A DNA stretch of 64,000 nucleotides from an uncultured Thermotogae bacterium (lineage in GTDB: Bacteria > Bipolaricaulota > Bipolaricaulia > RBG-16-55-9). Below the pieces are notes generated by a model, which was not told where the DNA came from, searched no databases, and was given only the letters and a program-made list of their open reading frames with translations. Shown piece by piece: positions 1-55,465 of the stretch. Both the position numbers and the translations under genes were made by a program. Every line of letters starts with the position of its first letter. Within the stretch, counting starts at the first letter, position 1. The stretch is from the NCBI GenBank assembly GCA_964567595.1, contig CAZMNF010000002.1, positions 39,149 to 103,148 on the forward strand, given 5' to 3'.

Positions 1-1359
1 GGCGTCCTTCTTGCCGTCCCCGTCGTCGTCCGAGCCGCCGTCGACGATCGTGCGCCGGATCAAATCGGGCTGACCGTCGTCATCCTGATCGATCACCGTC
101 TGGCGGTTCTGGCCGCCGATGTAGGGGCACTTGCCGACCCAGCCCACTTCCAGCGTCGTCGGATCGCCGTCGTCGACGCGGTGGGTGATCTTCTTGCCGA
201 AGGTGTCGTTGCTGACGCACCAGACCTCGATCTTAATGTTCTCGAATTCCCGGACGTTGGAGGGATAAAAGATGTCGGGGATGCCGTCGTTGTTGACGTC
301 CTCTCGGGTCCCGCGATTCTGAGCGGGGCAGAACTTGTCCTTGAGGCTCTGCTGCTGTTGCTGCTGTTGTTGGCGCTGTCCGTCTCCGGCCGACTGCCGC
401 TGGCGCTGGACCCCTTCGACCATGATCGCTTGGGCTTCCGTGTTGAGCGCCACTTGCTCGATTTGCTCGCCGACTTGCACGGTCTGATGCTCTTCGTCTT
501 GGCCGAGTTTGCCGGATTTCTGCGTCTGTTGCTCTTGCCGCTGGAAAGAGGCGACGATCAGCGAGCAGTCGTCATCGCGGGCCTGGACCTGGAAGCCTCG
601 CTCGCCCTGGCGTTGGACCGGCACGTCGTGGTTGATTCTGAGGTCGGCGCTCGTCTCAACCGCCCGATTCTGCTCGGGGAAGATCCACGTCCAGGTCTCG
701 CCGATGCCGTCCTTGTCGCAGTCCTGATTGACGCCGTACTGCTGCTGCTGCCCGGGCGAGCCCTGGACTTGCAGCGTCACCTGATCTTCCTCGTATTGGG
801 CGCCGACGATGTTCGTCGCCCCTTGGGCTTGGGCCTGCTTGCCCAACGGCTTGCCGTCGGAGCCGACCGGCGGCGCGTTGAAGTCGGGGTCCTCGGTCTC
901 GCGCCCTTCCCACTTCGGCTCCGGGTCGAAGCCCTCGCGCTGGCACGGGCTGACCGTGACCGTCGTGGAGGCGCTGGCGGTGCCGCCGCCCGAGGACGCC
1001 TCGATCTCGACGCGCAGCGTCCCGCCGCCCTCAAGCGTCAAATCGAACGTCACTTGACCCGAGGCGGCGTTGCGCGTCTGGGTCAACGTCCGTCCGTCCG
1101 GCAGGACGAGGGTAATGCTGACGTCCGGGCTCTCGGCGTCAGTGACGGTCCATTCAGCGGTGACGCGATGGGATGTCTGCTTCCCGCAGATCGCCTCGCC
1201 GCTGGCCGAGACCTGCACGCCGATGGCCGCCGTTCGGCCCAACACCGTCTGCTCCAGTGGCCGTCCTGCATCGGAAAGAACAAACATTCCGCCAACGATG
1301 AGCGTCAGCAGCGCTGTTGCGATCTTAAGTCCTCGGCGTCGTCCAAGTCGATCGTTCAT
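1..1359 (-). CDS. Anchored or secreted Asp/Gln-rich protein with DxDxDG-type putative Ca-binding loops (N-terminal 453 codons; the gene runs off the left edge, so it is absent from the ORF track)
   Basis: Hand translation of the minus strand from ATG 1359..1357 is stop-free to position 1: MNDRLGRRRGLKIATALLTLIVGG... It contains a poly-Q run (QRQQQQQQQQS) and the loops NNDGIPD, DQDDDGQPD and SDDDGDGKKD. GGAGG lies upstream, and there is an ATGA overlap (1356..1359) with the stop of the upstream gene. Confidence 0.6.
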   Translation of the reverse strand, partial: MNDRLGRRRGLKIATALLTLIVGGMFVLSDAGRPLEQTVLGRTAAIGVQVSASGEAICGKQTSHRVTAEWTVTDAESPDVSITLVLPDGRTLTQTRNAASGQVTFDLTLEGGGTLRVEIEASSGGGTASASTTVTVSPCQREGFDPEPKWEGRETEDPDFNAPPVGSDGKPLGKQAQAQGATNIVGAQYEEDQVTLQVQGSPGQQQQYGVNQDCDKDGIGETWTWIFPEQNRAVETSADLRINHDVPVQRQGERGFQVQARDDDCSLIVASFQRQEQQTQKSGKLGQDEEHQTVQVGEQIEQVALNTEAQAIMVEGVQRQRQSAGDGQRQQQQQQQQSLKDKFCPAQNRGTREDVNNDGIPDIFYPSNVREFENIKIEVWCVSNDTFGKKITHRVDDGDPTTLEVGWVGKCPYIGGQNRQTVIDQDDDGQPDLIRRTIVDGGSDDDGDGKKDA

Positions 1360-2057
1360 GATGAATCGTTCGCCTCCTTCTCGGTAGATGGTTGAGCGTC
1401 CGACGCCTCATGGGAGTCGGCGGACGTCTTGGTTTCGATCTGCCGTTCGAGCTTCGAGCGCTCGACTGAGCCCTCGCGTTTCCAGACGACGATGCCGCGA
1501 GCGTCGATCAGGAACGTGGCCGGCAGGCTGGCCACGCGATACGTCGTGGCCACCTCGCCCGTCCGATCGATCGCCAGCGGATAGTCCGCGCCGACGCGCT
1601 CGGCGAACGCGCGCACCGTTGGTTTTGCTTCGCCGACGTTCAGCCCGACCACGAGCAGGTCATCGTAGGTGCCGTCCAACGAGTTGAGCATGGGCATTTC
1701 GTGCTTGCAAAACGGACAATACGTGGCCCAGGCGTTGATCAGGACGGGCCGTCCGCGCTGTTCGCTCAGCCGAAACTGATCGCCCGCGATCGTCGAGAGC
1801 TCGAAATCGGGTGCCCGTTGGCCCACGCGGGGTCCGGTCTCGACGCCATCGTCCGAGGCGGTCTTCATCTCAGTTTCTTCCGCCTCGGCCTGCTGGGAGG
1901 TCTCACGCTGGGTCGGTTGGCCATCGTCTGCGAGCTCCGTCGTTGAGGACGAGACGGCGGGCCGATCGCCGCCCAACGATAGACTTAGCGCCAGAAGCCC
2001 GACGCCAACGGCGGCAACCGCCGTCGGCGTCCTGAGCGAGATCCAGGAGCGCGTCAT
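1356..2057 (-). CDS. TlpA/ResA-like membrane-anchored thiol:disulfide oxidoreductase (thioredoxin fold)
   Basis: WATYCPFCKHE CxxC motif, an N-terminal hydrophobic segment, and the redoxin-like block LPATFLIDARGIVV. I chose ATG 2057 because it makes an ATGA overlap with the upstream stop (2054..2057); the track start at 2069 is a GTG. Confidence 0.85.
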   Translation of the reverse strand: MTRSWISLRTPTAVAAVGVGLLALSLSLGGDRPAVSSSTTELADDGQPTQRETSQQAEAEETEMKTASDDGVETGPRVGQRAPDFELSTIAGDQFRLSEQRGRPVLINAWATYCPFCKHEMPMLNSLDGTYDDLLVVGLNVGEAKPTVRAFAERVGADYPLAIDRTGEVATTYRVASLPATFLIDARGIVVWKREGSVERSKLERQIETKTSADSHEASDAQPSTEKEANDSS

Positions 2058-5000
2058 TGTTGGATCCACCCCTGCAGCTGCAGGCTCTGCGGCGCAATGA
2101 TCAGAGGACGTGCGGCCACTTGGGCTTGGAAGTTGGGCGGCGTTGCCGACAGGAACAGAATGGGGCCTCCTTGTTGGGAGGCTCGTTGGAGATCGCGAGC
2201 CATGTTCTGCGGCAGGAAATTGTCCTCCTCGGCCGGCACGTACGACGCGTTCGCGTAGACGTTGGGATCGGGGACGTAGACCGCCAAGGGAGCGGTGGTC
2301 TCAACGCGCGAGCGCAGATACTCGCGGGTCGTCAAACACGTCGCCGTGCGGCCTTCCGATTGACAGTCGATTTGGAGTTCATTCGAGCCGGGTTGGGCCG
2401 TGTAGCTTGACGTGAAACCGCCCCCGAACTGCGCCCCATCGGCAAAGTAGACGCCAAAGATGTGGTACGGCTGCGCGCTGTTCGCGCTCAGGTTGACCGT
2501 CAGGCCATCGATGATGGTCTGCGGCAGGATGTCGCTCGGAGCCGATCGGAGCAGCTCCTTCAGTTGCTGGCTAGCTTGGAGTTTGAGTGTCGGCGTTGCG
2601 GACGAATCGTCCCCGCCTTCGCCATTGGTGGCTTGGACCTCGATGCGAACCGTCAACGTGCCGACGGCTTGGTTGGCGAAATTGAACAGGCGGTAGACGA
2701 CCTCATACGTCTCCGTACGGTTCGGAAGAAAGCCGTCCAGTTGGCCGGTGTTGCTGTCGAAACTGATCTGGAACCCGACGTCGGACGGCAGAGAGCTGGA
2801 CACCTTGTCGACGCTGATGACGCCGTTGTTATCGAGGTCATTCCTCAATTCTGACGGGATCTCCCGAGCGGCCACGTGGAACTGGCCCCCGTCGAAGGTG
2901 CCGAAATCCCACGTCAATTGGAGGTTGGACGTCGATTCGGACTGACAGGAGATCTCCTGAACTGACCGGTTGTTGCCCTCGTTCGACTCGGCAACGCGGT
3001 CGCTCGGATCGGCCATGGCGGTCAAGGCGACGTTGGCTTCGTCGCAAAGGAACTCAAAGAACGTCAAGGTCCGCGTCTGCCCCGCACCCAGGCGCGAGAC
3101 GCTCTGCGATCGTTGTTCGTTGGAGCCACTCACCTGGACGTTGAAGCTTCGGGTTACGGCCGCGGAGCCGCGGTTGCGGACCGTAACGTCGAGGCTGAAC
3201 GTGCCACCCCGGCTCGGTTCGCCAGGCGACGCTGAGATGGACTCGATCACGAGATCGGCCTCTTGAGCGACCTCCTCGCGCTCGGCCTCATAGATCGCTG
3301 AGACGGAGGCGTTCTGGCTCGGCATGGACAGCGTCGTGCGCGCGTTGGTCGAGATCTGGTTGCCGCCCCGCTCCCAGGCGACGAACTGGAGCGTCGTGCC
3401 GTTCTGCGCCACCGACGAGGGCGCATTGAGCGTCACCTGCCTGCCCGAGGCGTAGGGCTTGCTGAACGGCGTCGTCCGCGTGAATTGGCCGCTGTTGTCC
3501 TGGACGGAGATGTCGACGTTGAGGCGACGGATGCTCGACGCCACGCCCGTTTCCGAGCTCGAGCGATCGCGGGCGAAGGCGTCGACGTTCAAGATGGGCA
3601 ACCGCTCGCAGCTGCCTTGCAGGCACTCCTCGTTCAGGGTTGCCTCGGTGGTGGCTTGGAACTGGCCGAGCAGATCGACGGACGCGTCGGCAACCGACTG
3701 GGCTTCAGCAGCGGCCTGGGCTTGAGCGTTGGCCAGCGCGGCCACGTTGGCTGTAGCGTCGGCCCGGGCTCTTGCCTCGGCTTCGGCCTCGGCGCTCGCC
3801 TCGGCGGCTGCTTGGGCGTTTGCGGTCGCCTCGGCCAGGGTGCTCGCCTGCGCGGATGCCTGCGCCTCGGCGTCGGCGATCGCCTGCGCACTGGCGGCCG
3901 TCTCCGCGCGGGCCTGGGCCAAAGCGCTCGCCGCCGCGCGCGCGCTTGCCACGGCGTCGGCCTGCGCCTGGGCTGCTGCCTGAGCCGCCGCGTTCGCCTG
4001 GACTTGAGCTTCCACGCCCGTTTGGGCGGCGGCGTGGGCCTGGGCGGCGGCGCTGGCCTGAGCATTGGCCGCTGCCATGGCCTGGCTGCTCGCGTCCGCT
4101 TGTGCTGCGGCAAATGCCTCCGCCGCGGCTTGGACGTTCGTCTGCGCCTGCGACTGTGCCTGCGCCAACGCCTTGGTGGCCGTCGCCACCGACGCTTGCG
4201 CGCTCGCCTGGGCGCTCGCGGCCGCTTGGGCTTCGGTTTGGGCTTGGGCGGAGGCCTGAACGGCCGCCTGCACCTGCGAGGCAACCTCCTGGAGGTTGCC
4301 GTTTGACGCCGCGTCGGTCGCGGCTTGCGCAGCTGATTCCGCTTCGGATGCCGCCTCGGCGGCGGCCTCGGCACGCGAGGACGCCTCCGCTTCCGCCTCG
4401 GCCAGCGCCTCCGCCAGTGCCTCCGCCTCCGCCTCGGCGTTGGCCTGAGCTTTGGCGATGGCTTCAGCGGAGGCCTCGGCTCGACTCACCGCCTCGCTGA
4501 ACGCTTGCGCGAGGGCTTCGGCGGCGGATTGCGCCTCCGAGCGGGCCTCGGCAGCCGCCTCCGCTTCCGCCTCGGCGGTTGCCTGCGCTTCGGCGAGCGC
4601 CTGGGCGGCGGCTTCGGCCTGCGCCTTGGCTTCAGCGGCCGCCTCGGCTGCGGCTTGCGCCTCGGATTGGGCCGTGCCCTCGGCCTTCGAAGCCGCCTCG
4701 GCCGCGGCCTCAGCCGCGGCCACGGCCTTGGCCCGGGCGTCCGCCACGGCCTGGGCAAGCGACTCGGCTCGGGATGCCGCTTGGGCCGCGGCCGTCGCAT
4801 GGGCGTTCGCCCGCGCCTGCGCGGACGCCGCCGCGTCGGCCTCGGCTTGAGCCACGCTCAGCGCTTGTCCGACGGCGGACGCCGACGCATCGGCGGACGC
4901 GCTGGAGCGCGCCAACGCGTCGACGTAGGCGTTGGCAACGCCCTCGACGTTGGTCGTCACCTGGCCGCATTCGAACTCGTTGACGATCTCATCCCGAAAG

Positions 5001-5746
5001 GTCTCCGTGCGATCCCGCGCGCTCGCTTCGGCGCCGTCGACGGATTCCGCTGCGGATGAGGCCCGATCGCGGGCTTGGGCCGCGTCGGAGGCGTTCGCTT
5101 CGGCTTCGGCGCTCGATTCCGCCGTGGCCTCGGCGCTCGCTTGCGCGCTGGCTTGCGCCTGCGCCGCCGCCTCGGCGCGACTGCTCGCGCGTGCGTTGGC
5201 CTCGGCGGCCGATTCGGCCTGCGACGCCGCCAACGACGAGGCCGACGCAGCGGCTTCGGCGGTGGCCTGGGCTGAGCTTTCCGCGGCTGCTTGAGCTTGG
5301 GCGGCGGCCTCGGAGATCACCGAGAGCTGCTCGCTCACTTGCGCCTTGGCTTCCGATATGGCGCTTACGGATGCCTGGGCGCGGGTCTCCGCTTGCGCGG
5401 CCGCCTGGGCGATCGCGTCCGCCTGGGATTTCGCCTGAGCCTGCGCCTCGCTGACCGATTCAGCAAAGGCCCGAGCCCGAGAGAGCGCCTCCGATAGGCT
5501 CTCCACCCGAGATCGCGCGTTGGCCACCTCTCGATCGCGCGACTCGGCAATGGCGGATGCGGCGGACTCGGCTCGACTGGCGGCTTGGGTGGCCGCCTCG
5601 GCGGCGTTCTGCGCGGTGGTTGCAAGCTCAGATGGGACCTTGCCATCCTCAGGTCCGCCTTCTTGGGCCGATCCGAGATGGAGCATCGTGGTCAAGCTGA
5701 GCAACAGTAGCCCGGCGAGTAGCGCCCACCTTCGATTTGAGGTCAT
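2054..5746 (-). CDS. Giant (about 1,230 aa) exported Ala-rich protein with C-terminal beta-rich modules (InlB-B-repeat-like, CARDB-like, Ig-like)
   Basis: AAAGGAGG lies 7 nt upstream of ATG 5746 (MTSNRRWALLAGLLLLSL...LGSAQE signal/anchor). About 650 aa are A/Q/E/S low complexity. The CARDB-like block is DLVIESISASPGEP...DPSDRVAESNEGNN; the B-repeat-like block is GRQVTLNAPSS...FVAWERGG. Confidence 0.8.
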   Translation of the reverse strand: MTSNRRWALLAGLLLLSLTTMLHLGSAQEGGPEDGKVPSELATTAQNAAEAATQAASRAESAASAIAESRDREVANARSRVESLSEALSRARAFAESVSEAQAQAKSQADAIAQAAAQAETRAQASVSAISEAKAQVSEQLSVISEAAAQAQAAAESSAQATAEAAASASSLAASQAESAAEANARASSRAEAAAQAQASAQASAEATAESSAEAEANASDAAQARDRASSAAESVDGAEASARDRTETFRDEIVNEFECGQVTTNVEGVANAYVDALARSSASADASASAVGQALSVAQAEADAAASAQARANAHATAAAQAASRAESLAQAVADARAKAVAAAEAAAEAASKAEGTAQSEAQAAAEAAAEAKAQAEAAAQALAEAQATAEAEAEAAAEARSEAQSAAEALAQAFSEAVSRAEASAEAIAKAQANAEAEAEALAEALAEAEAEASSRAEAAAEAASEAESAAQAATDAASNGNLQEVASQVQAAVQASAQAQTEAQAAASAQASAQASVATATKALAQAQSQAQTNVQAAAEAFAAAQADASSQAMAAANAQASAAAQAHAAAQTGVEAQVQANAAAQAAAQAQADAVASARAAASALAQARAETAASAQAIADAEAQASAQASTLAEATANAQAAAEASAEAEAEARARADATANVAALANAQAQAAAEAQSVADASVDLLGQFQATTEATLNEECLQGSCERLPILNVDAFARDRSSSETGVASSIRRLNVDISVQDNSGQFTRTTPFSKPYASGRQVTLNAPSSVAQNGTTLQFVAWERGGNQISTNARTTLSMPSQNASVSAIYEAEREEVAQEADLVIESISASPGEPSRGGTFSLDVTVRNRGSAAVTRSFNVQVSGSNEQRSQSVSRLGAGQTRTLTFFEFLCDEANVALTAMADPSDRVAESNEGNNRSVQEISCQSESTSNLQLTWDFGTFDGGQFHVAAREIPSELRNDLDNNGVISVDKVSSSLPSDVGFQISFDSNTGQLDGFLPNRTETYEVVYRLFNFANQAVGTLTVRIEVQATNGEGGDDSSATPTLKLQASQQLKELLRSAPSDILPQTIIDGLTVNLSANSAQPYHIFGVYFADGAQFGGGFTSSYTAQPGSNELQIDCQSEGRTATCLTTREYLRSRVETTAPLAVYVPDPNVYANASYVPAEEDNFLPQNMARDLQRASQQGGPILFLSATPPNFQAQVAARPLIIAPQSLQLQGWIQQ
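3680..5630 (-). repeat. Low-complexity coding region: alternating Ala-x (x = E/Q/S/T/N) tracts in two blocks split by a Cys-containing linker at about 4921..5000
   Basis: Runs such as AEAEAEALAEALAEAEAEA and SAQASAQASAEATAESSAEAEA. In a hand-counted 139-residue stretch, 71 residues are Ala. All six frames are open here because of the GCN-rich codon periodicity. Confidence 0.85.
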
Positions 5747-6044
5747 CACGTAGCCTCCTTTCGTAGAGTCCTCCACGGCTTTTCAATTGAGTGGAGGTTC
5801 GTCTTCCCCATCGCCATGAGGGTGACGTCACAGATCGATTCCAGACTTTTAACACATTCGCGTTAACATTCCGTTAACTCTCCTTTGCTACATTTTTGAG
5901 GGCCGTTATGATGATCTGTGTTGGAGCATTACGAGCTCGAGTCAACGCACCTTTGCCAGAGCTATGGATCTGCTGTCGATCCGTCATCGATCCCCGTCAA
6001 CCGCACCCGACCCGGGTCGTCCGACAGTCGATCGGCTGAGGCGG

Positions 6045-6202: not shown

Positions 6203-6862
6203 ATGGCCATCGAGATCTACTTGATCCGCCACGGTCAGACCGACTGGAACCGCGACCGCATCTGCATGGGGCAGAAGGACGTGCCGCTCAACCAACTCGG
6301 CCATGAGCAGGCACTTCTGGCTGCCGATCGGCTGCGCGAGGTCCCCGTCACGACGATCGTGAGCAGCGACCTGACGCGCACGATCGAAACGGCGCAGCCA
6401 TTGGCCGAGATCCACGGCCTGTCGGTGAATACCGACGCGGCCTTTCGCGAGCTGGATTACGGCGATTGGCAGGGAATTCCGCAGGACGAGCTGCCCCGGC
6501 ACTATCCGGAGGCGTTCCGAGAGGACCCGCGGTTGGATCCGCTGGGCTTCCATCCCGACGGCGGCGAGCGCGTCCGAGACCTCTACGGTCGGGTGACGTC
6601 AGCGTTCGATCGACTGATCGAGCTACAGCGAGAGCGAACCATTGCCCTCGTTGCGCATGGCGGCGTCGTGCGCTGTCTCGCCAACTACGTCCTCGGGCAG
6701 GGCGCGCACGCGCTGGAGGGAACGTTTTTCAGCCTCGGCTTTACCGTCAGCAACGGCGGCATCACGCTGATACGGGTGACGACTGACGAGACGCCGCAAC
6801 TGATCCATCTGAACGATACCTGTCACCTCGCGTCGCTGTCCGAGTCCTCCGCAGCCGCGTAG
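6203..6862 (+). CDS. Histidine phosphatase family protein (phosphoglycerate mutase-like / CobC-like)
   Basis: MAIEIYLIRHGQTDWN (RHG motif) and a distal HGG (VAHGGVVR). The start is trimmed to ATG 6203 from the track ORF at 6089. Confidence 0.85.
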   Translation: MAIEIYLIRHGQTDWNRDRICMGQKDVPLNQLGHEQALLAADRLREVPVTTIVSSDLTRTIETAQPLAEIHGLSVNTDAAFRELDYGDWQGIPQDELPRHYPEAFREDPRLDPLGFHPDGGERVRDLYGRVTSAFDRLIELQRERTIALVAHGGVVRCLANYVLGQGAHALEGTFFSLGFTVSNGGITLIRVTTDETPQLIHLNDTCHLASLSESSAAA

Positions 6863-7131: not shown

Positions 7132-9267
7132 TTATTCGGTCTCGATGCGCGGATGGCGCGGCGCGAAGATGCCGTCCGGGTTCGGGATCCCGACCCACAC
7201 GTGCAGCCCGTAAAGCGTCGGATGCCAGAACGCCAGCGGGGATCCGTCGGCGTTCTCCGCGGGGGCGTTCGAAGGGTTCGACACCGCTTGTTCGCTGCCG
7301 TCCTCAAAGTGGGCCGCCGCGGAACGGCTCGACCAGTCGCTCGCGCGGAAGATCTCGACGTCCTCCATCGTTGAGACGAAGCGGACGCCGGCGAGCGTCA
7401 TCTCCCCCTCGGCGTCCTCGGCGTAGAGCAGAACCGGCGGCTCGTCGAAGGCCGGCCGACGATCCATAAGGAACTGCTGGTTGACATACGCCTGACCGAC
7501 GCCGTCGACGAACGGGCCAACCTGCTCGTAGCCGGCGTCTTGGGCAGCACTCGGCCGCGTGAAGTCGTTCATGAGCGTGTCGAGCTGATTCAGCTGCACG
7601 ATGGCCGTGACGTCGGCGTTGGTCATGCGGTACTGCGTGCCGGGGATGAAGACATCGGCGGCGAAGCGCGCCTGGGCGTCCCGGGCCTCCTCGTCCGTGA
7701 CGACGCCCTCGTCGAGGTAATAGTCCATCCAGTCGGGGACGCTGGGCGCGCCATCGAACGCCGAGTCCGTCGTTGAGACGGGCGCTCCCCGCGGCAGGCC
7801 CTCGCGAACGGAGATGCTGACGGTCGCCGCCGAGGCGTTCCCCGCCTCATCCGTGACCCGCACGCGAACGGTGTAATCCCCCGCAGCGTTGTAGGGATGC
7901 CGAGCGGTCGCCTCGGTCGTCTCCTCATCGAACGTGCCGTCGTTGGTCCAGTCCCATTCGTAAGTGTCGATGTCGTCGTTGGGATCGGATGAGCCGGAGG
8001 CGTCGAAGACGATCGCCTCGCCGACCAGCGCCTGGCTGGGCGAGGCGCTCAGGGCCGGCTGCGGGACTCCCGCGTCGCCGTTGTCGCCCGTCTCCGCCTC
8101 GTCACGACCGTCCTCGCCATTGCCGTCCTCCGTCTGGCTGTCGTCGGTGTCCTCTCCGTCGCCGTCGTCGGTTCCCTCGTCGGGACGGCCGTCGCCCTCG
8201 CCGACTTGGATCGTCGGCGATTCCGGAAATTCCACGACGACCCGCTCGCCCTGCGGGGTCGTGTACTCGAGCTCTGACGGCGCTCGGTTCAGGTCGAACG
8301 CCCCCTGCCGCGCGAATCTGACCTGGTAGCGCGTGTGCCAGGCCTCGCCCTCGAACAGCATAGGCACGCGCCATTGGAGCTGGGTCGCGTCTCGACCGGG
8401 CAGGATCGACGGGCCGTTCTCGAGCCCCTGCACGTCGGTGACCGCCCGCGGCAGCGTCTGGGTGAGCAACAGGTAGCGCGCGGCCACGTGACGATCGCCC
8501 TCGCGGAAGATCCGCTCCAGCGCGTCATCGCCATAGCGCTGGAAAAAGCGGCCATTGGAAGCCTCTCCGACGCGGGACAACACGCTGGTCCGCACCGACG
8601 GCGTCGTGCCGATGGCAAAGATGGGCACGTCGTTCTCGCCGGCCCGTTCGGCCTCAGCAAGCGGATCACGGCCGACCTGAGCCACCCCGTCCGTCGGCGC
8701 CACGATCAACGGCGTCGCCTCAGACCGAGCGTTGTCGACGAGCTCGTCAACGGCAAGCATCAGGCCATCGCCAAGCGCCGTCTGTCGGCCCTCGACGAGC
8801 CCGTCGATGGTCTCGCGAATCTCGGCGAACGCATCCCGGTTCTCCCCATCGGACCCACCGAGCGAGGTCAGTTCCTGTTCAACCCGAGCCGAATCCGCAA
8901 ATGAGACGATCCCCACGCGATCGGCGGCCCCGAGGTGGGACACGATCGTGTGGGCGATCCCCTGGACTCGGTCCAGGTCAACGCTTGCGGATCGATCCAA
9001 CGCGAGCACCAAGTCAATCGGCCCGTCGTCCGGGTCGGGTTGCGGCCCGATCACGGAGAGCTCCACCTCGGCGGGATCGCTCTCGCCGCCCTCGGCGATC
9101 GCAATCTCCTCAGGCTCGACGTTCTGTTCAATCTGAATCGCACCGGTCGGCTGCGCGATCGTGCCCATCGCGACGATCGCCAGCAGAAGCGCCCCGACCG
9201 ACGCCACACGCCACGACTTATCCCATCTGGGCAACATACGGCGCATCGGCCGCCTCCACATCGTCAA
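7132..9267 (-). CDS. Membrane-anchored or secreted vWA domain + PKD domain protein with an uncharacterised C-terminal domain
   Basis: N-terminal hydrophobic segment, MIDAS-like VLALDRSASV, and a PKD block FDASGSSDPNDDIDTYEWDWTNDGTFD...YTVRVRVTDEAGN. I cannot place the last ~230 aa. Confidence 0.8.
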   Translation of the reverse strand: MTMWRRPMRRMLPRWDKSWRVASVGALLLAIVAMGTIAQPTGAIQIEQNVEPEEIAIAEGGESDPAEVELSVIGPQPDPDDGPIDLVLALDRSASVDLDRVQGIAHTIVSHLGAADRVGIVSFADSARVEQELTSLGGSDGENRDAFAEIRETIDGLVEGRQTALGDGLMLAVDELVDNARSEATPLIVAPTDGVAQVGRDPLAEAERAGENDVPIFAIGTTPSVRTSVLSRVGEASNGRFFQRYGDDALERIFREGDRHVAARYLLLTQTLPRAVTDVQGLENGPSILPGRDATQLQWRVPMLFEGEAWHTRYQVRFARQGAFDLNRAPSELEYTTPQGERVVVEFPESPTIQVGEGDGRPDEGTDDGDGEDTDDSQTEDGNGEDGRDEAETGDNGDAGVPQPALSASPSQALVGEAIVFDASGSSDPNDDIDTYEWDWTNDGTFDEETTEATARHPYNAAGDYTVRVRVTDEAGNASAATVSISVREGLPRGAPVSTTDSAFDGAPSVPDWMDYYLDEGVVTDEEARDAQARFAADVFIPGTQYRMTNADVTAIVQLNQLDTLMNDFTRPSAAQDAGYEQVGPFVDGVGQAYVNQQFLMDRRPAFDEPPVLLYAEDAEGEMTLAGVRFVSTMEDVEIFRASDWSSRSAAAHFEDGSEQAVSNPSNAPAENADGSPLAFWHPTLYGLHVWVGIPNPDGIFAPRHPRIETE

Positions 9268-38563: not shown

Positions 38564-39757
38564 ATGAGGACGAAGAAGACGCTCGACGACGTTGACGTCC
38601 GGGGCCAGCACGTCCTCGTTCGCGTGGACTTCAACGTTCCGCTATCCGAGGGGACCGTCGCCGACGACACCCGAATTCGCGCGGCGTTGCCGACGATCCG
38701 GGATCTGGTCGAATCGGGCGCCCGGGTGGTGCTCTGTTCGCACCTCGGGCGCCCCAAGGGCGAGCGAGACGACTCGCTCAGCCTACGTCCGGCCGCCGAG
38801 CGGCTCGCCCAGTTGCTCGACCAGGACGTGGAGACGGCCGACGACTGTGTTGGCGACGACGTCGAGGCCCAGGTGGAGCAGCTGACACCCGGGCGGGTTC
38901 TGTTGTTGGAGAACACGCGGTTCCACGCCGAGGAAAAGCAGAACGAGACCGACTTTTCCCAACAGCTCGCCAACCTGGCCGACGTCTACGTCAACGACGC
39001 GTTCGGGGCAGCCCATCGCGCTCACGCATCCACGGAGGGCGTCGCTCATCACGTCGAGACGGCGGTGATGGGCCGACTGATGGAGACGGAACTGGTCGCC
39101 ATCGCCCAAGCCATCGAACGCCCGGAGCGTCCGCTGGTGGCGGTTCTGGGCGGCGCCAAGATCAGCGACAAGATCGGCGTCCTCCAAAAGTTGCGCGAGG
39201 TGGCCGACACGGTGCTCGTCGGCGGCGGCATGGCCAACACCTTTCTCAAAGCCCGGGGAATCGACGTGGGCACATCGCTCGTCGAGGACGATGCCCTTGA
39301 CGAAGCGAAGCGACTCATGGCGGCGTTCGGTGACGCGCTGGTGTTGCCCGTCGATGCCGTCGTGGCGCCCGAGGTCGACGCAAGCGCCGACCGCCGCACG
39401 GTTGCCATCGATGATATCCCCGAGGGTTGGAAAATCCTCGACATCGGGCCTGAGACGATCACGACGTTCAATGGCCACCTCCGAGATGCGATGACGGTCG
39501 TCTGGAACGGGCCAATGGGCGTCTTTGAAGTCGAGCCGTACGCGGCGGGGACGTTCGCGATCGCACGAACTTTGGCGGAATTGAACGCCATCACGGTCGT
39601 CGGTGGCGGTGAATCCGGCGCGGCCGTCGATCAGGCCGGCGTCGTCGATCAGCTCACGCACGTCTCCACCGGCGGCGGCGCGTTCCTGACGTTGCTCGAA
39701 GGGAGCGAGCTGCCCGGCGTCGCCGTTCTCGACGACCGCGGGGCGGGCTCTCCATAA
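38564..39757 (+). CDS. pgk: Phosphoglycerate kinase
   Basis: VRVDFNVP, SHLGRPKG and GGGMANTFL blocks. Confidence 0.95.
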   Translation: MRTKKTLDDVDVRGQHVLVRVDFNVPLSEGTVADDTRIRAALPTIRDLVESGARVVLCSHLGRPKGERDDSLSLRPAAERLAQLLDQDVETADDCVGDDVEAQVEQLTPGRVLLLENTRFHAEEKQNETDFSQQLANLADVYVNDAFGAAHRAHASTEGVAHHVETAVMGRLMETELVAIAQAIERPERPLVAVLGGAKISDKIGVLQKLREVADTVLVGGGMANTFLKARGIDVGTSLVEDDALDEAKRLMAAFGDALVLPVDAVVAPEVDASADRRTVAIDDIPEGWKILDIGPETITTFNGHLRDAMTVVWNGPMGVFEVEPYAAGTFAIARTLAELNAITVVGGGESGAAVDQAGVVDQLTHVSTGGGAFLTLLEGSELPGVAVLDDRGAGSP

Positions 39758-50393: not shown

Positions 50394-50469
50394 AGCTAGT
50401 GGGCCGCCTGGTCGCACGCTCGACGGTCGACGTCTGACGTGCAAACGCTTGTCAAGAGACCTTCTTGCC

Positions 50470-50515
50470 CTATCATTGCATATTAAGCGGGTTTTGCCAG
50501 TAGAAGCAATGATAG
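50470..50515. promoter_or_regulatory. Perfect 10-bp inverted repeat with a 26-nt spacer upstream of the BACON-repeat gene
   Basis: CTATCATTGC (50470..50479) and GCAATGATAG (50506..50515). Confidence 0.35.
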
Positions 50516-50539
50516 TGTGTGGTTGGTCGGTCGCCATCG

Positions 50540-50550
50540 CCCCCCCCCCC
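50540..50550 (+). repeat. C11 homopolymer tract 42 nt upstream of the start codon at 50593
   Basis: Counted directly: gc + cccccccccc; it reads as gcc ccc ccc ccc in the spurious upstream ORF frame. Confidence 0.9.
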
Positions 50551-50592
50551 GAGTCGACATCGGGAACCATCTTGCTATCAAAGGAGGATGTG

Positions 50593-51948
50593 ATGTTATC
50601 CATCACAACATCGGCGCGCTGGACGTTGACCCTTGCCCTCGCGGTGCTATTGGGGCTCATTTGGGCGTCTCCAACCGCCCTTCTTGCTCAAGGTCAACCG
50701 GCCCTCGAAGTCGAGCCCACCTCGCTCACCTTTGAGGCCGAAGCTGGCGGATCCGCCCCGGATGCCCAGACGTTGACCGTCACCAACGATGGCAGCGGGC
50801 AGATGGACTGGGAAATGGCCGATAACGCCGACTGGCTCATCGCGGAGAGCAGCGGCGTGCTCAACGGCGGTCAAAGCGCCGGCGTCAACGTCATTGTGCT
50901 GATCGACAATCTTGACGCGGGGACCTACGAAGCGACCATCACGGTCACGGCCGAGCAAGCCGACAACAGCCCGGTTGAAGTCCCGGTCACGTTGACCCTG
51001 CAGGGGTCCGCGAGCATGGGCGAGCTGACGGTCGAGCCCCGCCAGCTCAACCTTCAGGCCGAAAAGGGCGGCAATCCCCCGTCTGAGACCGTCACGATCG
51101 AGAATACGGGGGACGCAGCGCTGGACTGGACGGCCGAGTCCCGAGCCGATTGGCTCAGCCTTAGGCCCGATCGTGGCTCGTTGAGCCCCGGTCAGCGACG
51201 AAGCGTGCGCGTCACCGCGGATATCGAGTCGGTCAACGCCGGCGACTTCCAGACGACGATCGCCGTCAGCTCGCCCGACGCGAGCCGGAGTCCGGTGCGC
51301 GTCCAGGTGTCGCTCTCGTTGGAGGAGAGCCCGGACCAACCGGCGGGCCCCCAAGCGTGTGAGCGTGGCAACACGGTGTTCGCCGACGACTTCAGCGATC
51401 CCGGCAGCGGATGGACGCAGGATTCCGGCGGTGGCTTCAACTGGGGGTATGACGAGGGCGAGTATCGCGTCTTCATCACCGAGCCCAACTTCCTGATTTG
51501 GGCCTCGGCACCCTTCGACGAGTCCCGTATTCCCCGAAGCTACTGCCTGAGCGCCGACGTGAAGCAGCTCGTCCAGGGGAGTCTTTCCTCGCAGGGCGAG
51601 GTCGGCCTGATGTTTGCCAGAAGCGAGAGCAACAACACCTTCACCATGTTCAGCGTCGCGAACACAGAGCTATATCGCGTCGTTCGCTGGGACTGCAGCG
51701 GCTCTGGGTGCTCATCCGACGTCCTCGTTGAGGCCCAAGCGTCGGACGCGATTCGGTCACAGGACAGCTTCAACCGGTTGCAGATCATTGCCGAAGGACG
51801 CGAAGCCCGTCTGTTTATCAACGACACCCAGGTCGAGATTGTGTCGACCGAGACCTCCGGCTCTGTCGGCGTCATGACCATCAGCTTCGACGAGCCGAAC
51901 GTCAACGGTCGCTTCGACAACTTCGAGGTCACGGAACTGCCCCAGTGA
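50593..51948 (+). CDS. Secreted protein: two BACON-like Ig-fold repeats plus a C-terminal LamG/DUF1080-like jelly-roll
   Basis: AAAGGAGGA lies 4 nt upstream of ATG 50593. Signal peptide ...LIWASPTALLAQG. The repeats read LEVEPTSLTFEAEAGG...MDW...ADWL... and LTVEPRQLNLQAEKGG...LDWTAESRADWLSL... The C-terminal pattern is F.DDF..PGSGW...Y.V......FDNFEV. Confidence 0.8.
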   Translation: MLSITTSARWTLTLALAVLLGLIWASPTALLAQGQPALEVEPTSLTFEAEAGGSAPDAQTLTVTNDGSGQMDWEMADNADWLIAESSGVLNGGQSAGVNVIVLIDNLDAGTYEATITVTAEQADNSPVEVPVTLTLQGSASMGELTVEPRQLNLQAEKGGNPPSETVTIENTGDAALDWTAESRADWLSLRPDRGSLSPGQRRSVRVTADIESVNAGDFQTTIAVSSPDASRSPVRVQVSLSLEESPDQPAGPQACERGNTVFADDFSDPGSGWTQDSGGGFNWGYDEGEYRVFITEPNFLIWASAPFDESRIPRSYCLSADVKQLVQGSLSSQGEVGLMFARSESNNTFTMFSVANTELYRVVRWDCSGSGCSSDVLVEAQASDAIRSQDSFNRLQIIAEGREARLFINDTQVEIVSTETSGSVGVMTISFDEPNVNGRFDNFEVTELPQ

Positions 51949-52480: not shown

Positions 52481-55465
52481 ATGCATGGAGCGATCGCACG
52501 GCGCGTTGCGTTGACGGCCTTGATTCTGCTCATGGGCGGAACGCTGGTAACCCAAGCGCAGACGAGTCTGACCACCTCATCCGACAAAGAGCCCAAGCAA
52601 AACAGCCCGAAGATCCAATCGATGGTCGAGGATCTCTTTAACGAGTCAGGAAGCCGAGCGTTATCCCAGGCATCCGCAACGAGCAGCACGAAGCGGCTGT
52701 TTGCCACCGACATCAAAGGGAATCGAGCGCGCGTCGTCGTGGAAGCAGCGTCCGGAGCTGCCACCTCGACGCTCGTTGAACGAATCGAAGCGGCCGGTGG
52801 ACGCGTCGAGACGACCTACGAGACCTCCATCCAAGCCTATCTCAGTGAATCCACCATCCGTGAACTGGCCGACACGAACCTCGTGTCGTTCGTGCGCATG
52901 CCGGTTCAGGCCCAACAACCGAGGTCGTCGAAGCAACCCCATCAGGCAACCGAATCTCGGGGGACTACGGAGAGCGAAGGCTTGTCCGTGATCGGATCGC
53001 GGGCGTGGAATGAGGCCGGCCTCAATGGCGAGGGGGTCAAGGTTGGCATCGATGATGGCGGGTTTGATAACTATGAGAGCCTATTGGGAGAAGACCTCCC
53101 GCCTTCCGACAAGGTTGAAACTCGCTCGTTTGCAGAAGACGCCGATATCGAGGCGGACACTGATCATGGAACGGCCGTCTCGGAGATCGTTCACGACGTG
53201 GCACCGAACGCCAGTCTCTACCTCACCAACTCACAAACGCTGGTGGAGACACAGAACGCCATCGACTGGATGCTGGAGCAGGACGTCGACGTCATCAACA
53301 GCTCATGGGGATTCAACACCGGCTGTCTACAAGATGGAGACGCGGGGCTCCTCGGATCTCAGATCCAGGAGGCCCGTGAGCAGGGGGTCACCTGGGTGAC
53401 CTCTGCCGGCAATGAAGGCGGAGATCACTGGCGAGGAGAATGGGAAGACCCTGACGATAATGATCAACACAACTTCTCCTCGATCGATCAAAACCTCTCG
53501 TTCGATGTGGAGTTGTTCCTAGCTGAAAATGACGGCGAGCGGTTCGCGTTGGCCAGTACCATTGTGCTGCTAAGTTGGAACGGTGACTGCGAGGACGCAC
53601 AGAATGCCTACGAGCTTGAGATCAATTCGGACGTCCTCAGCTCGCCCATCGAAGGTGACTGGGGCTTAGAACCGGGCATCCCCACCAAGATTGTCACTGG
53701 CATCATCGGGTCAGAAGATACCTCCCTCGTTGGGGAAGAGATCACGATGAACGTGTCCATCAAAAAGACCGTGGATGATGCTCCAGAGCTACTTGACCTC
53801 ACCATTCTCGAGTGTCGAGAGTGCATCGATCGTGAGTCGCGTCATCTCAATGCCGAGGGGAGCGTCGGCGTGAGCGAGCCGGCCATCTCTCCCGATGCTG
53901 TGTCGGTTGGGGCAACCCACCACACGCCAAGCGAATGCGGCGACCTTTGTGCGGAAGGCTCGTTGCTCGAGTTCTCCAGTCGTGGCCCGACTGGCGACGG
54001 GCGAACCAAGCCCGATATCGCCGCCCCATCGTTCGTCTCAACAACAGCGTTCGGCGAGTGGACGCCAGATGATGACGACCTCGGTTTCGCCGGCACTTCG
54101 TCATCTGCCCCCCACGTGGCCGGGGCGGCGGCACTCGTCACCCAAGCGAGACCCGAGTTTTCACCGAATGAGGTGCAAAGCTTCCTCGAAGATCGCGCCG
54201 AAGATCTTGGCCCGCCCGGCAAGGACAATTTGTTCGGAGCTGGCTTGATGACCCTTGGGCCCGTCCCCGAACAGCGGGAAGAGGATCCCCGACTCACCGT
54301 GGATCCGACGGAGCTCAGCTTTACGGCAACCAAGGGTGAAGGCGATCCCGCGCCGAAGTCATTGGAGATCGGCAATGACGGCGGCGGGGCGCTGGACTGG
54401 AGCGCCCAGACGACGGCAAACTGGCTCCAGCTCAGTCGCTCATCGGGCAGTGGGCCCGCCAACGTCGACGTGTCCGCCAGCATCAGCGATCTGTCCGGCG
54501 GGACGCATGAGGGCCGCATCGTGATCACCGCCTCCGGAGCTGACGGCAGTCCGGCCACAGTCCCAGTGACGTTATCACTCCAGGAAGGGGAAGAACCGGC
54601 AACCCTTGAGGTCAGTCCCCAAGCGCTGACCTTCGAGGCCACCGCCGGCGACAGCGCACCGCCCGCCCAGACACTGAACGTGACAAACGGCGGCGACGGG
54701 CTGCTCGAGTGGCAGGCCCGGACGACGGCTCCCTGGATCCAGCTCAGCTTGGAAGAAGGCTTTACGCCCTCAAACGTTGACGTCTCGGTCAATGTGGGCG
54801 ACCTCTCCGCGGGCACGCACGAAGGCCGCATCATCGTTACCTCGCCCGATGCCGACAACGGCCCCATCCGCGTCGACGTCACGCTGGAACTGTCCGGCGA
54901 CACGTCTCAAGCGCCCATGCTCGACGTCCAGCCCGATCCGCCGGACTTGAACTTCGGCGAACAACCGGCGGCGGGGCAAGCGTCGCTGGAGATCACGATC
55001 CGCAACGCCGGCGCCGGAACGCTCAGTTGGGAAGCGAGCGCCGATGAGCCCTGGGTGGCGATCGATCCCAACAGCGGCAACCTGAGCGCTGACCAGGCAC
55101 AGCCCGTCCAGGTCACGGTCGATAGCGGCTCGCTGGAGCCGGGCGAGCACACGACGGACTTGCAGATCTCGGCCGAGGACGGCCAGCAGTCGGCGACCGG
55201 GACTGTCCGCGTCCAGATCGTCGAAGAGCAACAGCAAACGGAAGGCCAGCTCCTGGCGCTGGCGTTCGAGGAGTTCCTCCTGATGGAGCCCGCCGACTGG
55301 ACGCGCGAGACCCAGGACGGCTGCGTCGTCTACACCAACGACAGCGACGACCGCAGCCAGGTCCGTGTGACGCAACTGAACGGTTCGACGCGCTCGTTCG
55401 ACATCCCGGCCGGCAATCAAGTGATCGTCTGTGATCGGGTGATCCACATCGACACGCGGACGTAG
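52481..55465 (+). CDS. Large secreted S8 serine protease: I9-like prodomain, catalytic domain with a large insert, three BACON-like repeats, and a ~80-aa C-terminal tail
   Basis: Catalytic triad contexts VKVGIDDGGFD, TDHGTAVSEIV and FAGTSSSAPHVAGAAALV, with oxyanion SAGNEG. The repeats read LTVDPTELSFTATKGEG..., LEVSPQALTFEATAGDS... and LDVQPDPPDLNFGEQ... TAAGGAGGA lies upstream. Confidence 0.85.
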   Translation: MHGAIARRVALTALILLMGGTLVTQAQTSLTTSSDKEPKQNSPKIQSMVEDLFNESGSRALSQASATSSTKRLFATDIKGNRARVVVEAASGAATSTLVERIEAAGGRVETTYETSIQAYLSESTIRELADTNLVSFVRMPVQAQQPRSSKQPHQATESRGTTESEGLSVIGSRAWNEAGLNGEGVKVGIDDGGFDNYESLLGEDLPPSDKVETRSFAEDADIEADTDHGTAVSEIVHDVAPNASLYLTNSQTLVETQNAIDWMLEQDVDVINSSWGFNTGCLQDGDAGLLGSQIQEAREQGVTWVTSAGNEGGDHWRGEWEDPDDNDQHNFSSIDQNLSFDVELFLAENDGERFALASTIVLLSWNGDCEDAQNAYELEINSDVLSSPIEGDWGLEPGIPTKIVTGIIGSEDTSLVGEEITMNVSIKKTVDDAPELLDLTILECRECIDRESRHLNAEGSVGVSEPAISPDAVSVGATHHTPSECGDLCAEGSLLEFSSRGPTGDGRTKPDIAAPSFVSTTAFGEWTPDDDDLGFAGTSSSAPHVAGAAALVTQARPEFSPNEVQSFLEDRAEDLGPPGKDNLFGAGLMTLGPVPEQREEDPRLTVDPTELSFTATKGEGDPAPKSLEIGNDGGGALDWSAQTTANWLQLSRSSGSGPANVDVSASISDLSGGTHEGRIVITASGADGSPATVPVTLSLQEGEEPATLEVSPQALTFEATAGDSAPPAQTLNVTNGGDGLLEWQARTTAPWIQLSLEEGFTPSNVDVSVNVGDLSAGTHEGRIIVTSPDADNGPIRVDVTLELSGDTSQAPMLDVQPDPPDLNFGEQPAAGQASLEITIRNAGAGTLSWEASADEPWVAIDPNSGNLSADQAQPVQVTVDSGSLEPGEHTTDLQISAEDGQQSATGTVRVQIVEEQQQTEGQLLALAFEEFLLMEPADWTRETQDGCVVYTNDSDDRSQVRVTQLNGSTRSFDIPAGNQVIVCDRVIHIDTRT

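Follow-up and report, generated by a model that had tools for sequence, protein, structure and literature searches.

A Candidate Four-Gene Operon for an Extracytoplasmic Fibrous Assembly in Halophilic Bipolaricaulia

Gene Content and Boundaries of the Operon

The window, a stretch of 64,000 nucleotides from an uncultured bacterium (assembly GCA_964567595.1, contig CAZMNF010000002.1, forward-strand positions 39,149 to 103,148), carries at its left end a predicted minus-strand operon whose products are considered here as candidate components of an extracytoplasmic fibrous assembly (Table 1). Three open reading frames (ORFs) are present at this end: P1 encodes a very long Ala-rich protein, P2 a thiol-disulfide oxidoreductase, and P3 an anchored protein that runs off the window. 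The chain of ATGA overlaps that the initial annotation had seen between them can be read directly at both junctions; CAA CAA TGA (P1 stop) overlaps with ATG ACG (P2 start) at 2054-2057, and TCA TCA TGA (P2 stop) with ATG AAC (P3 start) at 1356-1359. Shine-Dalgarno sequences of the GGAGG type lie upstream of P1 and of P3, and a GTG one codon upstream is an alternative start of P1. The contig to the left of position 1 was recovered from a public contig, L003, which is 100% identical to window positions 1-1561 and reaches 6.7 kb further left; it supplied the end of P3 and a fourth gene on the same strand, P4 (631 amino acids), which begins 28 nt past P3 and is preceded by its own Shine-Dalgarno sequence AAAGGAGG. 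Upstream of P1 follows a divergent histidine-phosphatase gene, and downstream beyond P4 a convergent metzincin-like gene and then an anti-sigma (zf-HC2) gene; therefore, the operon is a unit of four genes, P1-P4, that is bounded on both sides.

The homologs of P3 and the neighboring genes indicate an origin in Candidatus Bipolaricaulia. A relative with 80% identity (L007) is the metagenome-assembled genome (MAG) DAL-Ass_25_90C3R, and the prefix DAL-Ass marks MAGs from Lake Assale/Karum, a hypersaline lake of the Danakil Depression (10.1101/2024.03.10.584303). Sequencing runs SRR14300217-228 from brines also contain contigs that are identical or almost identical to this locus. The encoded proteins are acidic, with 151 Asp+Glu versus 72 Lys+Arg in P1; the host is a hypersaline/halophilic Candidatus Bipolaricaulia bacterium.

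Table 1. Features of the operon, with window coordinates unless stated otherwise.
Feature	Position	Strand	Residues and description	Basis
P1 coding sequence	2054..5746	-	1230 amino acids	ORF; GGAGG Shine-Dalgarno; orthologs 71% and 60% identical
P1 signal peptide	5666..5746	-	Residues 1-27; predicted cleavage between ...LGSA and QE	Hydropathy and site inspection
P1 predicted helix 1	4979..5632	-	Residues ~39-256	Ala lattice
P1 loop 1	4901..4978	-	Residues 257-282; C260-G-x-V...V.G; C260 codon 4967-4969	
P1 predicted helix 2	4307..4900	-	Residues 283-480	Ala lattice
P1 turn 2	4286..4306	-	Residues 481-487; S-N-G-N-L-Q-E	Ala parity flips here
P1 predicted helix 3	3671..4285	-	Residues 488-692	Ala lattice
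P1 linker	3602..3670	-	C708-LQGS-C713; codons 3623-3625 and 3608-3610	Invariant across family
P1 InlB B-repeat-like domain	3281..3601	-	Residues 716-822	PF18998 Flg_new_2
P1 CARDB domain	2966..3259	-	Residues 830-927	PF07705, E 1.8e-15, 57.4 bits vs. 22.7
P1 Ig-like domain	2627..2935	-	Residues 938-1040	Recurrent ~100-residue family without Pfam assignment
P1 C-terminal domain	2057..2599	-	Residues 1050-1230; C1128 and C1137 inside	
P2 coding sequence	1356..2057	-	233 amino acids; membrane-anchored TlpA/ResA-like thiol-disulfide oxidoreductase	
P3 coding sequence	1..1359	-	First 453 of 496 amino acids	Translation; homologs P0002-P0008
P3 anchor	1270-1329	-	Residues ~11-30	Hydropathy
P3 Bap-like Ig domain	940-1227	-	Residues 45-140, closed by C58 and C139	Profile, AlphaFold2 (AF2)
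P3 Q8 run	349-372	-	Residues 330-337	Sequence
P4	L003 1722-3617, left of window position 1	Same as P3	631 amino acids; unassigned ~300-residue N-domain and YWTD propeller	
Direct repeat	5861..5878	-	GTTAACG-GAAT-GTTAACG; candidate promoter/operator	Conserved block in three aligned orthologous upstream regions

The Alanine Lattice of P1

The Ala-rich part of P1 (residues 39-692) had been described as about 650 residues of Ala/Gln/Glu/Ser low complexity in two blocks; length and composition stand (residues 31-700 contain 42% Ala, 11% Ser, 11% Glu, and 10% Gln), but in place of two loose blocks the region has the phasing of a coiled coil with three predicted helices. Ala occupies one parity of a period-2 lattice, with a parity excess of 53-68 vs. 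5.6 +/- 4.2 in shuffles, equivalent to z = 11-15 in each of the three segments; the register continues unbroken for ~400 residues, flips its parity at residues 481-487, and is then held for ~200 more. In helix 1 (residues 45-250; parity z = 11), Ala takes up 64% of the Ala phase of the lattice and small residues as a whole 91%, and the alternate x positions have a period of 3.54; in helix 2, 84 of the 99 Ala-phase positions (85%) are Ala and the remainder Ser, Gly, or Thr, so that 100% are small (parity z = 14), and the apolar residues of the x phase show the 3.54 period with a power of 20.8; helix 3 has 80% Ala in this phase, z = 14, and the same 3.54 period. Within the x-sublattice, apolar and acidic residues share this period (power up to 21), and their autocorrelation peaks at lags 4, 14, 18, and 28, with troughs at lags 2, 12, and 16; as judged from sequence, this periodicity is characteristic of an alpha-helical, left-handed coiled coil with a putative 14-residue super-repeat. 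The apolar fraction of the x positions, 24-29%, fits the ratio 2/7 = 28.6% that would result if x supplied every second a/d core position and Ala the others. The related proteins P0011 and P0020 contain the same lattice (z = 12-21) with the same period of 3.54-3.56. A search of PDB sequences with the Ala-rich region found only (QA)n, eL29, and CSP low-complexity matches, and hhalign comparisons among the three P1 helices were uninformative owing to composition bias.

Long plus-strand ORFs within 3485-5500 (up to 273 amino acids), antisense to the Ala-rich coding region, were not treated as genes; stop codons are few on this strand because the codons of the opposite strand are GCN-rich.

Length-Matched Segments and a Proposed Cysteine Clasp

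The proteins that share these features are grouped here as an "alanine-lattice stalk" family, consisting of P1 and its orthologs in L007 and L009, P0011, P0020, P0030/L095, P0047-P0051, P0053, and P0057. By our own definition, all listed members have a signal peptide, an (Ala-X)n lattice of 550-780 residues, a Cys in loop 1, a turn at the midpoint, a CxxxxC linker, and variable beta domains; every source name is "hypothetical protein," and no curated family exists. The Cys-containing linkers of the initial annotation, NEFEC(260)GQ and NEEC(708)LQGSC(713), are present in P1 and invariant in its relatives: the three Cys residues C260, C708, and C713 are conserved throughout the family, the loop-1 motif is invariant in a four-sequence alignment, and a comparable motif is found in P0020, P0030, P0051, P0053, and P0057.

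In six full-length members of four different lengths, the halfway point between the Cys of loop 1 and the first Cys of the linker is no farther than 1-2.5 residues from a turn-2 Gly (Table 2); only 3-9 Gly or Pro residues per protein occur between these two Cys positions, and a rough chance estimate for four independent midpoint matches is ~3e-6. Together with the length matching of the segments, the midpoint rule makes an up-down-up three-helix rod the simplest reading. It is most likely that the Ala-rich part of P1 folds into a length-matched three-helix rod of ~33 nm, the length being calculated with 0.148 nm per residue.

Table 2. Position of the turn-2 Gly relative to the Cys residues of loop 1 and linker; the helix 1 span of the window P1 is counted from the helix start to C260.
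Protein	Loop-1 Cys/first linker Cys	Midpoint	Turn-2 Gly	Helix 1 span/arm (residues)
Window P1	260/708	484	G483	221/224
L007, L009	264/712	488	G487	221/224 (L007)
P0011	277/816	546.5	G544, G546	250/269
P0020	261/709	485	G484	221/224
L095	230/614	422	G421	189/192

The distant member P0011 (L094 10001-14542) has 12 extra helix Cys within residues 101-745, all at x positions in an A-C-A context, with spacings of 32 and 46. Three pairs of these Cys are mirror-symmetric about loop 1 (P ~ 0.03) and would suit inter-helix staples; Cys 147, 309, 617, and 745 are not explained by a simple hairpin geometry. A pairing around turn 2 is exact (525/571 about G546), yet not significant alone (P = 0.67), and was set aside.

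Export Signal and Beta-Domain Head of P1

The sole hydrophobic 19-mer of P1 is N-terminal (mean Kyte-Doolittle hydropathy, KD, 1.72), as expected for the anchor or signal that had been proposed; a signal-peptidase-type site of the form small-x-A before Q is kept in the P1 orthologs, and the signal peptide is predicted to be cleaved between ...LGSA and QE. No further hydrophobic segment follows, and the C-terminal half consists of soluble beta-sandwich-type domains. The suggested B-repeat-like module is not listed in a whole-protein Pfam scan; PF18998 emerges above its cut-off once residues 716-822 are scanned alone (E 1.1e-6, 28.9 bits vs. 23.6), and a local profile of this domain is present in 32 gathered proteins. 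The adjoining CARDB-like module is confirmed by the Pfam match in Table 1; C901 inside the CARDB domain and its presumed partner C934, just past the Pfam match, are both invariant in three orthologs. The Ig-like assignment of the next domain holds in part: it is a recurrent domain of ~100 residues, found in 38 gathered proteins and in some as tandem copies (P0011 among them), for which Pfam gives no assignment beyond sub-threshold matches to He_PIG in some relatives. An exhaustive HMMER search returned 24 proteins, and in 23 of them the match ran through this domain.

The C-terminus, which the initial annotation could not place, remains without assignment in a Pfam scan over its last ~180 residues (1050-1230); it has one detectable relative, P0014, with 34% identity over 178 residues to residues 167-340, a protein that also carries GEVED and Por_Secre_tail domains of the type IX secretion system (T9SS). 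In the L009 ortholog, a B-repeat-like domain replaces the C-terminal domain. The helical part of P1 fell into no known adhesin or S-layer family when Pfam, NCBIfam, and PDB were searched by sequence and by profile, in agreement with the statement that the locus matched no characterized system.

P1 appeared to be an orphan in homology searches because its orthologs are absent from the 15-billion-protein collection that was searched. A word-indexed search with residues 700-1230 returned one CARDB protein only, and exact look-ups identified this result as an artefact; all three Ala-lattice orthologs (window 2054-5746, L007 5581-9288, and L009 6371-9835) are missing from the collection, yet their neighbors are included, and strongly Ala-rich proteins may be under-represented in such collections. 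A metagenome scan with an alignment of the P1 head yielded 80 loci with matches centered on the CARDB motif, none of which spanned the whole head.

The Oxidoreductase P2

The membrane-anchored thioredoxin fold that had been read into P2 is borne out by the Pfam models AhpC-TSA (E 9e-26, 90.7 bits vs. a cut-off of 26) and Redoxin (E 3.4e-21, 76 bits vs. 26.6), by the active-site motif WATYCPFC at residues 110-117 (CPFC at 1707-1718), by a cis-Pro loop in the context LPATFLID, and by a single hydrophobic 19-mer at residues 12-30 (KD 1.84), the core of an anchor at ~residues 12-31. From this topology, the thioredoxin domain is predicted to face the outside of the cytoplasm. P2 scores below all NCBIfam cut-offs, including those for ResA (112.3 vs. 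170), DsbE (70.8 vs. 123), CcmG/DsbE (60 vs. 359), StoA (56.6 vs. 210), and TlpA (52.1 vs. 230). In the window, L003, and L007, neither the operon nor its flanks had a gene call for the maturation of cytochrome c or copper proteins, and a scan of a genome collection with P2 found nothing.

P3 and P4

The anchor, the poly-Q run, and the D-x-[DN]-x-D-G loops that had been noted in P3 are all present, the last of these in four copies (residues 213, 354, 424, and 444); that P3 continues beyond the window is also correct, with the amendment that only 43 residues of the full-length protein of 496 amino acids, obtained from L003, are missing. The anchor is followed by an Ig domain, a Q-rich middle, and a Cys-containing beta domain that includes the D-x-[DN]-x-D-G loops and gives a sub-threshold match to FG-GAP_3. 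The profile of the Ig domain matches PDB 7dm0, a biofilm-associated surface protein, with E 4e-7; P3-type Ig domains represent a distinct subfamily with an invariant Cys pair and an S-H...W...GG signature. Foldseek searches with the P3 model produced generic FnIII/Ig matches only (template modeling score <= 0.16). A GTDB scan with the P3 alignment found the family in 1 of 185,579 species representatives, the already known MAG.

The propeller of P4 is identified by PF00058 (Ldl_recept_b) with E 4.4e-26 and 91.5 bits vs. a cut-off of 21 in five matched stretches; the sequence contains six YW[AST][DNV] blades and no cysteines. The YWTD (LDL-receptor class B) repeat is best known from animal LDL receptors. 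P1, P2, and P3 have exactly one hydrophobic segment each, always N-terminal, and P1-P4 show no SLH match at E <= 1.

Conservation and Modularity of the Operon

The initial annotation had read the trio as a self-contained module in which large exported proteins are accompanied by a dedicated thiol oxidoreductase outside the cytoplasm, and the comparison with relatives agrees with this view: the trio of P1, P2, and P3 recurs in L007, together with P4 and with both 4-nt overlaps, and the gene order recurs in L095, a far more distant lineage with 57% GC content and with Lys-rich rather than acidic proteins. In L095, a P1-family gene is followed after 3 nt by a TlpA-like gene, whose product is 42-49% identical to P2 (42%) and its L007 ortholog, and then by genes for a 1173-residue protein with P3-type Ig repeats and also a HEIGH motif, for a 784-residue protein with an N-terminus (anchor and Ig domain) that mirrors P3, and for a P4-like protein, in which the N-domain of P4 (E 1e-20 to 1e-24) is fused to an FG-GAP propeller, not to a YWTD propeller. 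The same adjacency possibly exists in L099, where a P1-like gene is followed 3 nt later by an anchored ORF that is cut by the contig end. P0047 and P0048, two members of the P1 family, contain P3-type Ig domains as fused parts of their own chains, and the Cys pairs in the CARDB domain and in the P3-type Ig domain are invariant.

The 70% relative, L009, contains P1, P3, a short P3 paralog, and P4 without an oxidoreductase, and L011 has P3 alone. Among ten family loci examined, five have no adjacent thioredoxin gene; in L094, one of these five, a Thioredoxin_2 gene is located on the opposite strand at a distance of ~2 kb upstream. Because the enzyme is missing from L009 and from the immediate neighborhood of these five loci, the oxidoreductase is, as far as gene order tells, an optional accessory, and the partnership appears real but modular.

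Several proteins near these loci resemble parts of the operon. The short paralog of L009 (11542-12201), located between P3 and P4, is a protein of 219 amino acids that combines the anchor and Ig domain of P3 with a different short tail. In L099 (2226-3650), a "stalk-less" protein of 474 amino acids with B-repeat, CARDB, Ig-like, and B-repeat domains is encoded directly upstream of P0020, and L095 has a comparable CARDB protein upstream.

Proposed Assembly and Alternative Explanations

On balance, the four genes probably constitute an operon for an extracytoplasmic fibrous assembly in halophilic Bipolaricaulia, consisting of a rod with its clasp, P2, and the partners P3 and P4. All four products would be exported by Sec, and the signal peptide of P1 would be removed. 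The ~650-residue (Ala-X)n segment would then fold into an up-down-up, Ala-packed three-helix coiled coil with arms of ~224 residues (~33 nm). One end of this rod (end A) would hold the mature N-terminus and turn 2; the opposite end (end B) would combine loop 1 (C260) with the C708/C713 linker in a disulfide clasp, and it is here that the beta domains would emerge, so that end B would display the InlB B-repeat, CARDB, Ig-like, and C-terminal domains. P2, located in the cytoplasmic membrane and facing outward, could form, reshuffle, or keep reduced the Cys residues of the clasp, and the paired Cys of three domains (CARDB, P1 C-terminal, and P3 Ig) could be further targets of the enzyme; the anchored P3 and the propeller protein P4 would be partner or anchoring components. 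The whole assembly could be a surface or envelope stalk, an adhesin or matrix element, or a spacer inside a toga-like envelope; we infer a function as an envelope or surface fibril. A broader proposal falls slightly short of an even call and is advanced tentatively: the dipeptide Ala lattice would be an undescribed class of coiled coil, with a 14-residue super-repeat and a length-matched, disulfide-clasped rod of 28-40 nm, and it would serve as the shaft of bacterial fibrils, of the envelope or the surface, that belong to a new family with TlpA-like and propeller/Ig partners. In Bipolaricaulota, the rod could be part of the toga or of its S-layer.

Several points weigh against the four-gene assembly as proposed. 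Enzymes of the TlpA family are usually reductants for the maturation of cytochromes and copper proteins, and an oxidizing or isomerizing role of P2 is an assumption; in addition, the enzyme is an inconstant neighbor, as described for L009 and the five family loci. Pfam and hydropathy scans of P1 and P4 revealed no SLH domain, LPXTG motif, beta-barrel, or C-terminal transmembrane segment that would account for attachment. The heptad signal of helix 3 is weaker than in the other helices (power 5.5), and the bundle is possibly intermolecular instead of intramolecular. AF2 models are of limited help; the single-sequence model of P1 has a predicted local distance difference test (pLDDT) score of 42 and neither supports nor refutes a bundle, and the all-beta model of P3 (pLDDT 56) is confident for the Ig domain (residues 48-137) alone.

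As an alternative to a surface fibril, P1 could be a periplasm-spanning tether or spacer of the toga envelope, in the manner of Omp-alpha of Thermotoga or of SlpA/OmpM; in this case, the rod would determine how far the inner layers are from the outer sheath, with the beta domains as binding modules for the sheath or the S-layer. Bipolaricaulota that have been cultured and imaged possess an S-layer and an outer sheath resembling a toga (10.1101/2025.11.21.689855; PMC6092417), and a toga-like outer membrane has been described in the phylum (10.1101/2025.11.21.689855); Omp-alpha is a coiled coil of 45-50 nm (PMC10160955), a range of lengths to which the predicted P1 rod of ~33 nm would belong, and all four operon products are predicted to be exported. 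This explanation is nevertheless unlikely, since P1-P4 lack recognizable SLH domains, beta-barrels, and C-terminal transmembrane segments, the predicted topology of P1 is a folded-back hairpin and not a parallel oligomer that extends from an N-terminal to a C-terminal anchor, the patchy GTDB occurrence of the P3 family is unlike that of a core envelope component, and the head domains (CARDB, InlB B-repeat, and Bap-like Ig) are of adhesin type.

A second alternative concerns P2, which could be a housekeeping reductant of the ResA/CcmG/TlpA type in an incidental position, with P1 and P3 as merely unrelated exported proteins. The best NCBIfam matches of P2 are indeed the ResA, DsbE, and TlpA models, most P1-family loci have no adjacent thioredoxin gene, and L009, in which P1, P3, and P4 are retained but the oxidoreductase is missing, encodes a separate AhpC-TSA/SCO1 protein close by. 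An incidental position is improbable all the same, given the 4-nt overlaps on both sides of P2 that are conserved in L007, the recurrence of the same adjacency in the distant L095 and possibly in L099, the invariant Cys residues in which the neighbors are rich, scores below every equivalog cut-off, and an operon in which no ccm, resBC, ccdA, or sco gene was called.

The third alternative, the least likely of the three, regards the Ala-rich region as a structureless or silk-like (beta or cross-beta) low-complexity spacer whose regularities stem from GC-rich codons or repeat expansion: alternating (Ala-X)n is the classic pattern of an amphipathic beta-strand, AF2 confidence is low, PDB searches give only low-complexity matches such as (QA)n, and DNA tandem repeats (period 6-24) are detectable in the coding sequence, yet these repeats are short (2-9 copies) and imperfect, three orthologs (60-71% identity) align across 650 residues without an indel, unlike repeats driven by slippage, runs of 100-200 residues are almost free of Gly and Pro, a disordered region would not account for the matched lengths and the midpoint rule, and lag 2, where beta structure is expected to give the strongest signal, is the weakest even lag for acidic residues and negative for apolar plus acidic residues of the x phase, with the 3.54 period dominating.

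Comparison with Known Systems

The closest known parallels for the proposed rod are Omp-alpha and SlpA/OmpM (PMC10160955, PMC9388160), which are likewise exported proteins of deep-branching hosts with a toga or an atypical diderm envelope and form coiled-coil rods of tens of nanometers; in sequence, P1 has the long coiled-coil rod signal of this group, with its 3.54 periodicity in three segments of ~205 residues. Omp-alpha and SlpA/OmpM carry N-terminal SLH domains and C-terminal anchors or beta-barrels, all of which P1 lacks, and assemble into parallel oligomers; P1 would instead fold back into three length-matched helices and end in adhesin-type beta domains. In composition, P1 resembles the silk fibroins of aculeate insects such as honeybees and hornets and coiled coils of the "Alacoil" type with an alanine core (PMC12284834); the Ala-rich coiled-coil segments of ~210 residues have Ala and other small residues within the core and near it, with similar contents of Ala, Ser, and Glu; the predicted helices of P1 have 200-220 residues each. 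The two are not homologous, and the eukaryotic silk differs by forming heterotetramers of four chains, compared to three helices of one chain in P1, and by lacking a Cys clasp and a beta-domain head. The strict period-2 Ala lattice with its 14-residue super-repeat is not mentioned for silk (PMC12284834), a comparison made by description only.

P1 would share with streptococcal antigen I/II a long stalk built from length-matched segments of a single chain. The antigen I/II stalk is formed by two distant segments of matched length, an Ala-rich and a Pro-rich helix, that fold back on each other and present a binding domain at the tip; an alpha helix is paired with a polyproline-II helix, both chain ends are located at the base, and the protein has an LPXTG anchor. 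P1, by contrast, would have three alpha helices, lacks a sortase signal, and showed no sequence similarity to antigen I/II in any search. The CARDB and InlB B-repeat modules of its head are reminiscent of fibrillar adhesins, and the N-terminal Ig domain of P3 is related by profile to Bap/BSP repeats (PDB 7dm0, E 4e-7, and 6m3a); the overall architectures of P1 and P3 differ from those of Bap and the internalins.

P2 corresponds to TlpA, ResA, CcmG, and StoA in its fold, WxxxCxxC motif, N-terminal anchor, and cis-Pro loop context, and departs from them in its scores below every NCBIfam cut-off, its CPFC site, and the absence of linked cytochrome or copper maturation genes from its surroundings. 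MdbA, SdbA, and TrbB are dedicated oxidoreductases of surface-structure assembly; like TrbB or MdbA, P2 is encoded together with the exported proteins that it would serve.

Coiled-coil stalks, alanine-core coiled coils, CARDB, B-repeat, and Bap-like domains, and TlpA-like enzymes are familiar pieces; the combination of a strict dipeptide lattice, a predicted length-matched, Cys-clasped design of three helices within one chain, and a recurrent operon was found in none of the libraries searched. If the proposed fold is correct, the lattice would provide a simple and designable rule for very long, thin coiled coils (Ala at alternate positions, core and charged residues with 3.5 periodicity), and a natural case of three helices of the same chain that are kept equal across lineages (arms of 192, 224, and ~270 residues). 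The operon would then also give initial molecular access to the envelope or surface of Bipolaricaulota that are halophilic, in a phylum represented by one recent isolate, with an unusual toga-like envelope of undescribed protein composition, and would add a further exported fibrous protein that travels with its own oxidoreductase, here in a probably anaerobic, salt-in lineage. The C260/C708/C713 clasp would then be a defined candidate substrate with which to probe substrate specificity in the TlpA-like family, which is large and poorly assigned.

Upstream Region and Neighboring Genes

Sigma-70 and terminator scans gave nothing usable on the operon strand, and no Rfam family or tRNA was detected in scans of the window. 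The direct repeat upstream of P1 (Table 1) has the form GTTGACG-N4-GT[TC]GACG in the relatives (L007 ~5420-5440; L009 ~6215-6235); it is located ~115 nt before the P1 start in three genomes, within an intergenic region that has otherwise diverged, and is a candidate promoter or operator that could act as a -35 element or be bound by a response regulator.

Beyond P4, three minus-strand genes on L003 (3664-6479) are convergent to the operon. The first encodes a secreted metzincin-like protein of 423 amino acids, with a weak Peptidase_M10 match and a sub-threshold He_PIG-like domain; the other two encode the zf-HC2 anti-sigma factor, with a two-transmembrane (2TM) domain, and an unassigned protein of 317 amino acids. 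On the other side of the operon, just past a chorismate mutase gene, the window contains a gene for an exported protein of 711 amino acids (7132-9267, minus strand) with a vWA domain, an acidic linker, a PKD domain, and an unassigned C-terminal domain of ~220 residues. Farther along, two plus-strand genes (50449-51948 and 52481-55465) encode exported proteins with "viral BACON" (BACON_2) Ig-like repeats, one of which is also a subtilase; BACON_2 domains also form part of the head in P0020 and P0030, two distant members of the P1 family.

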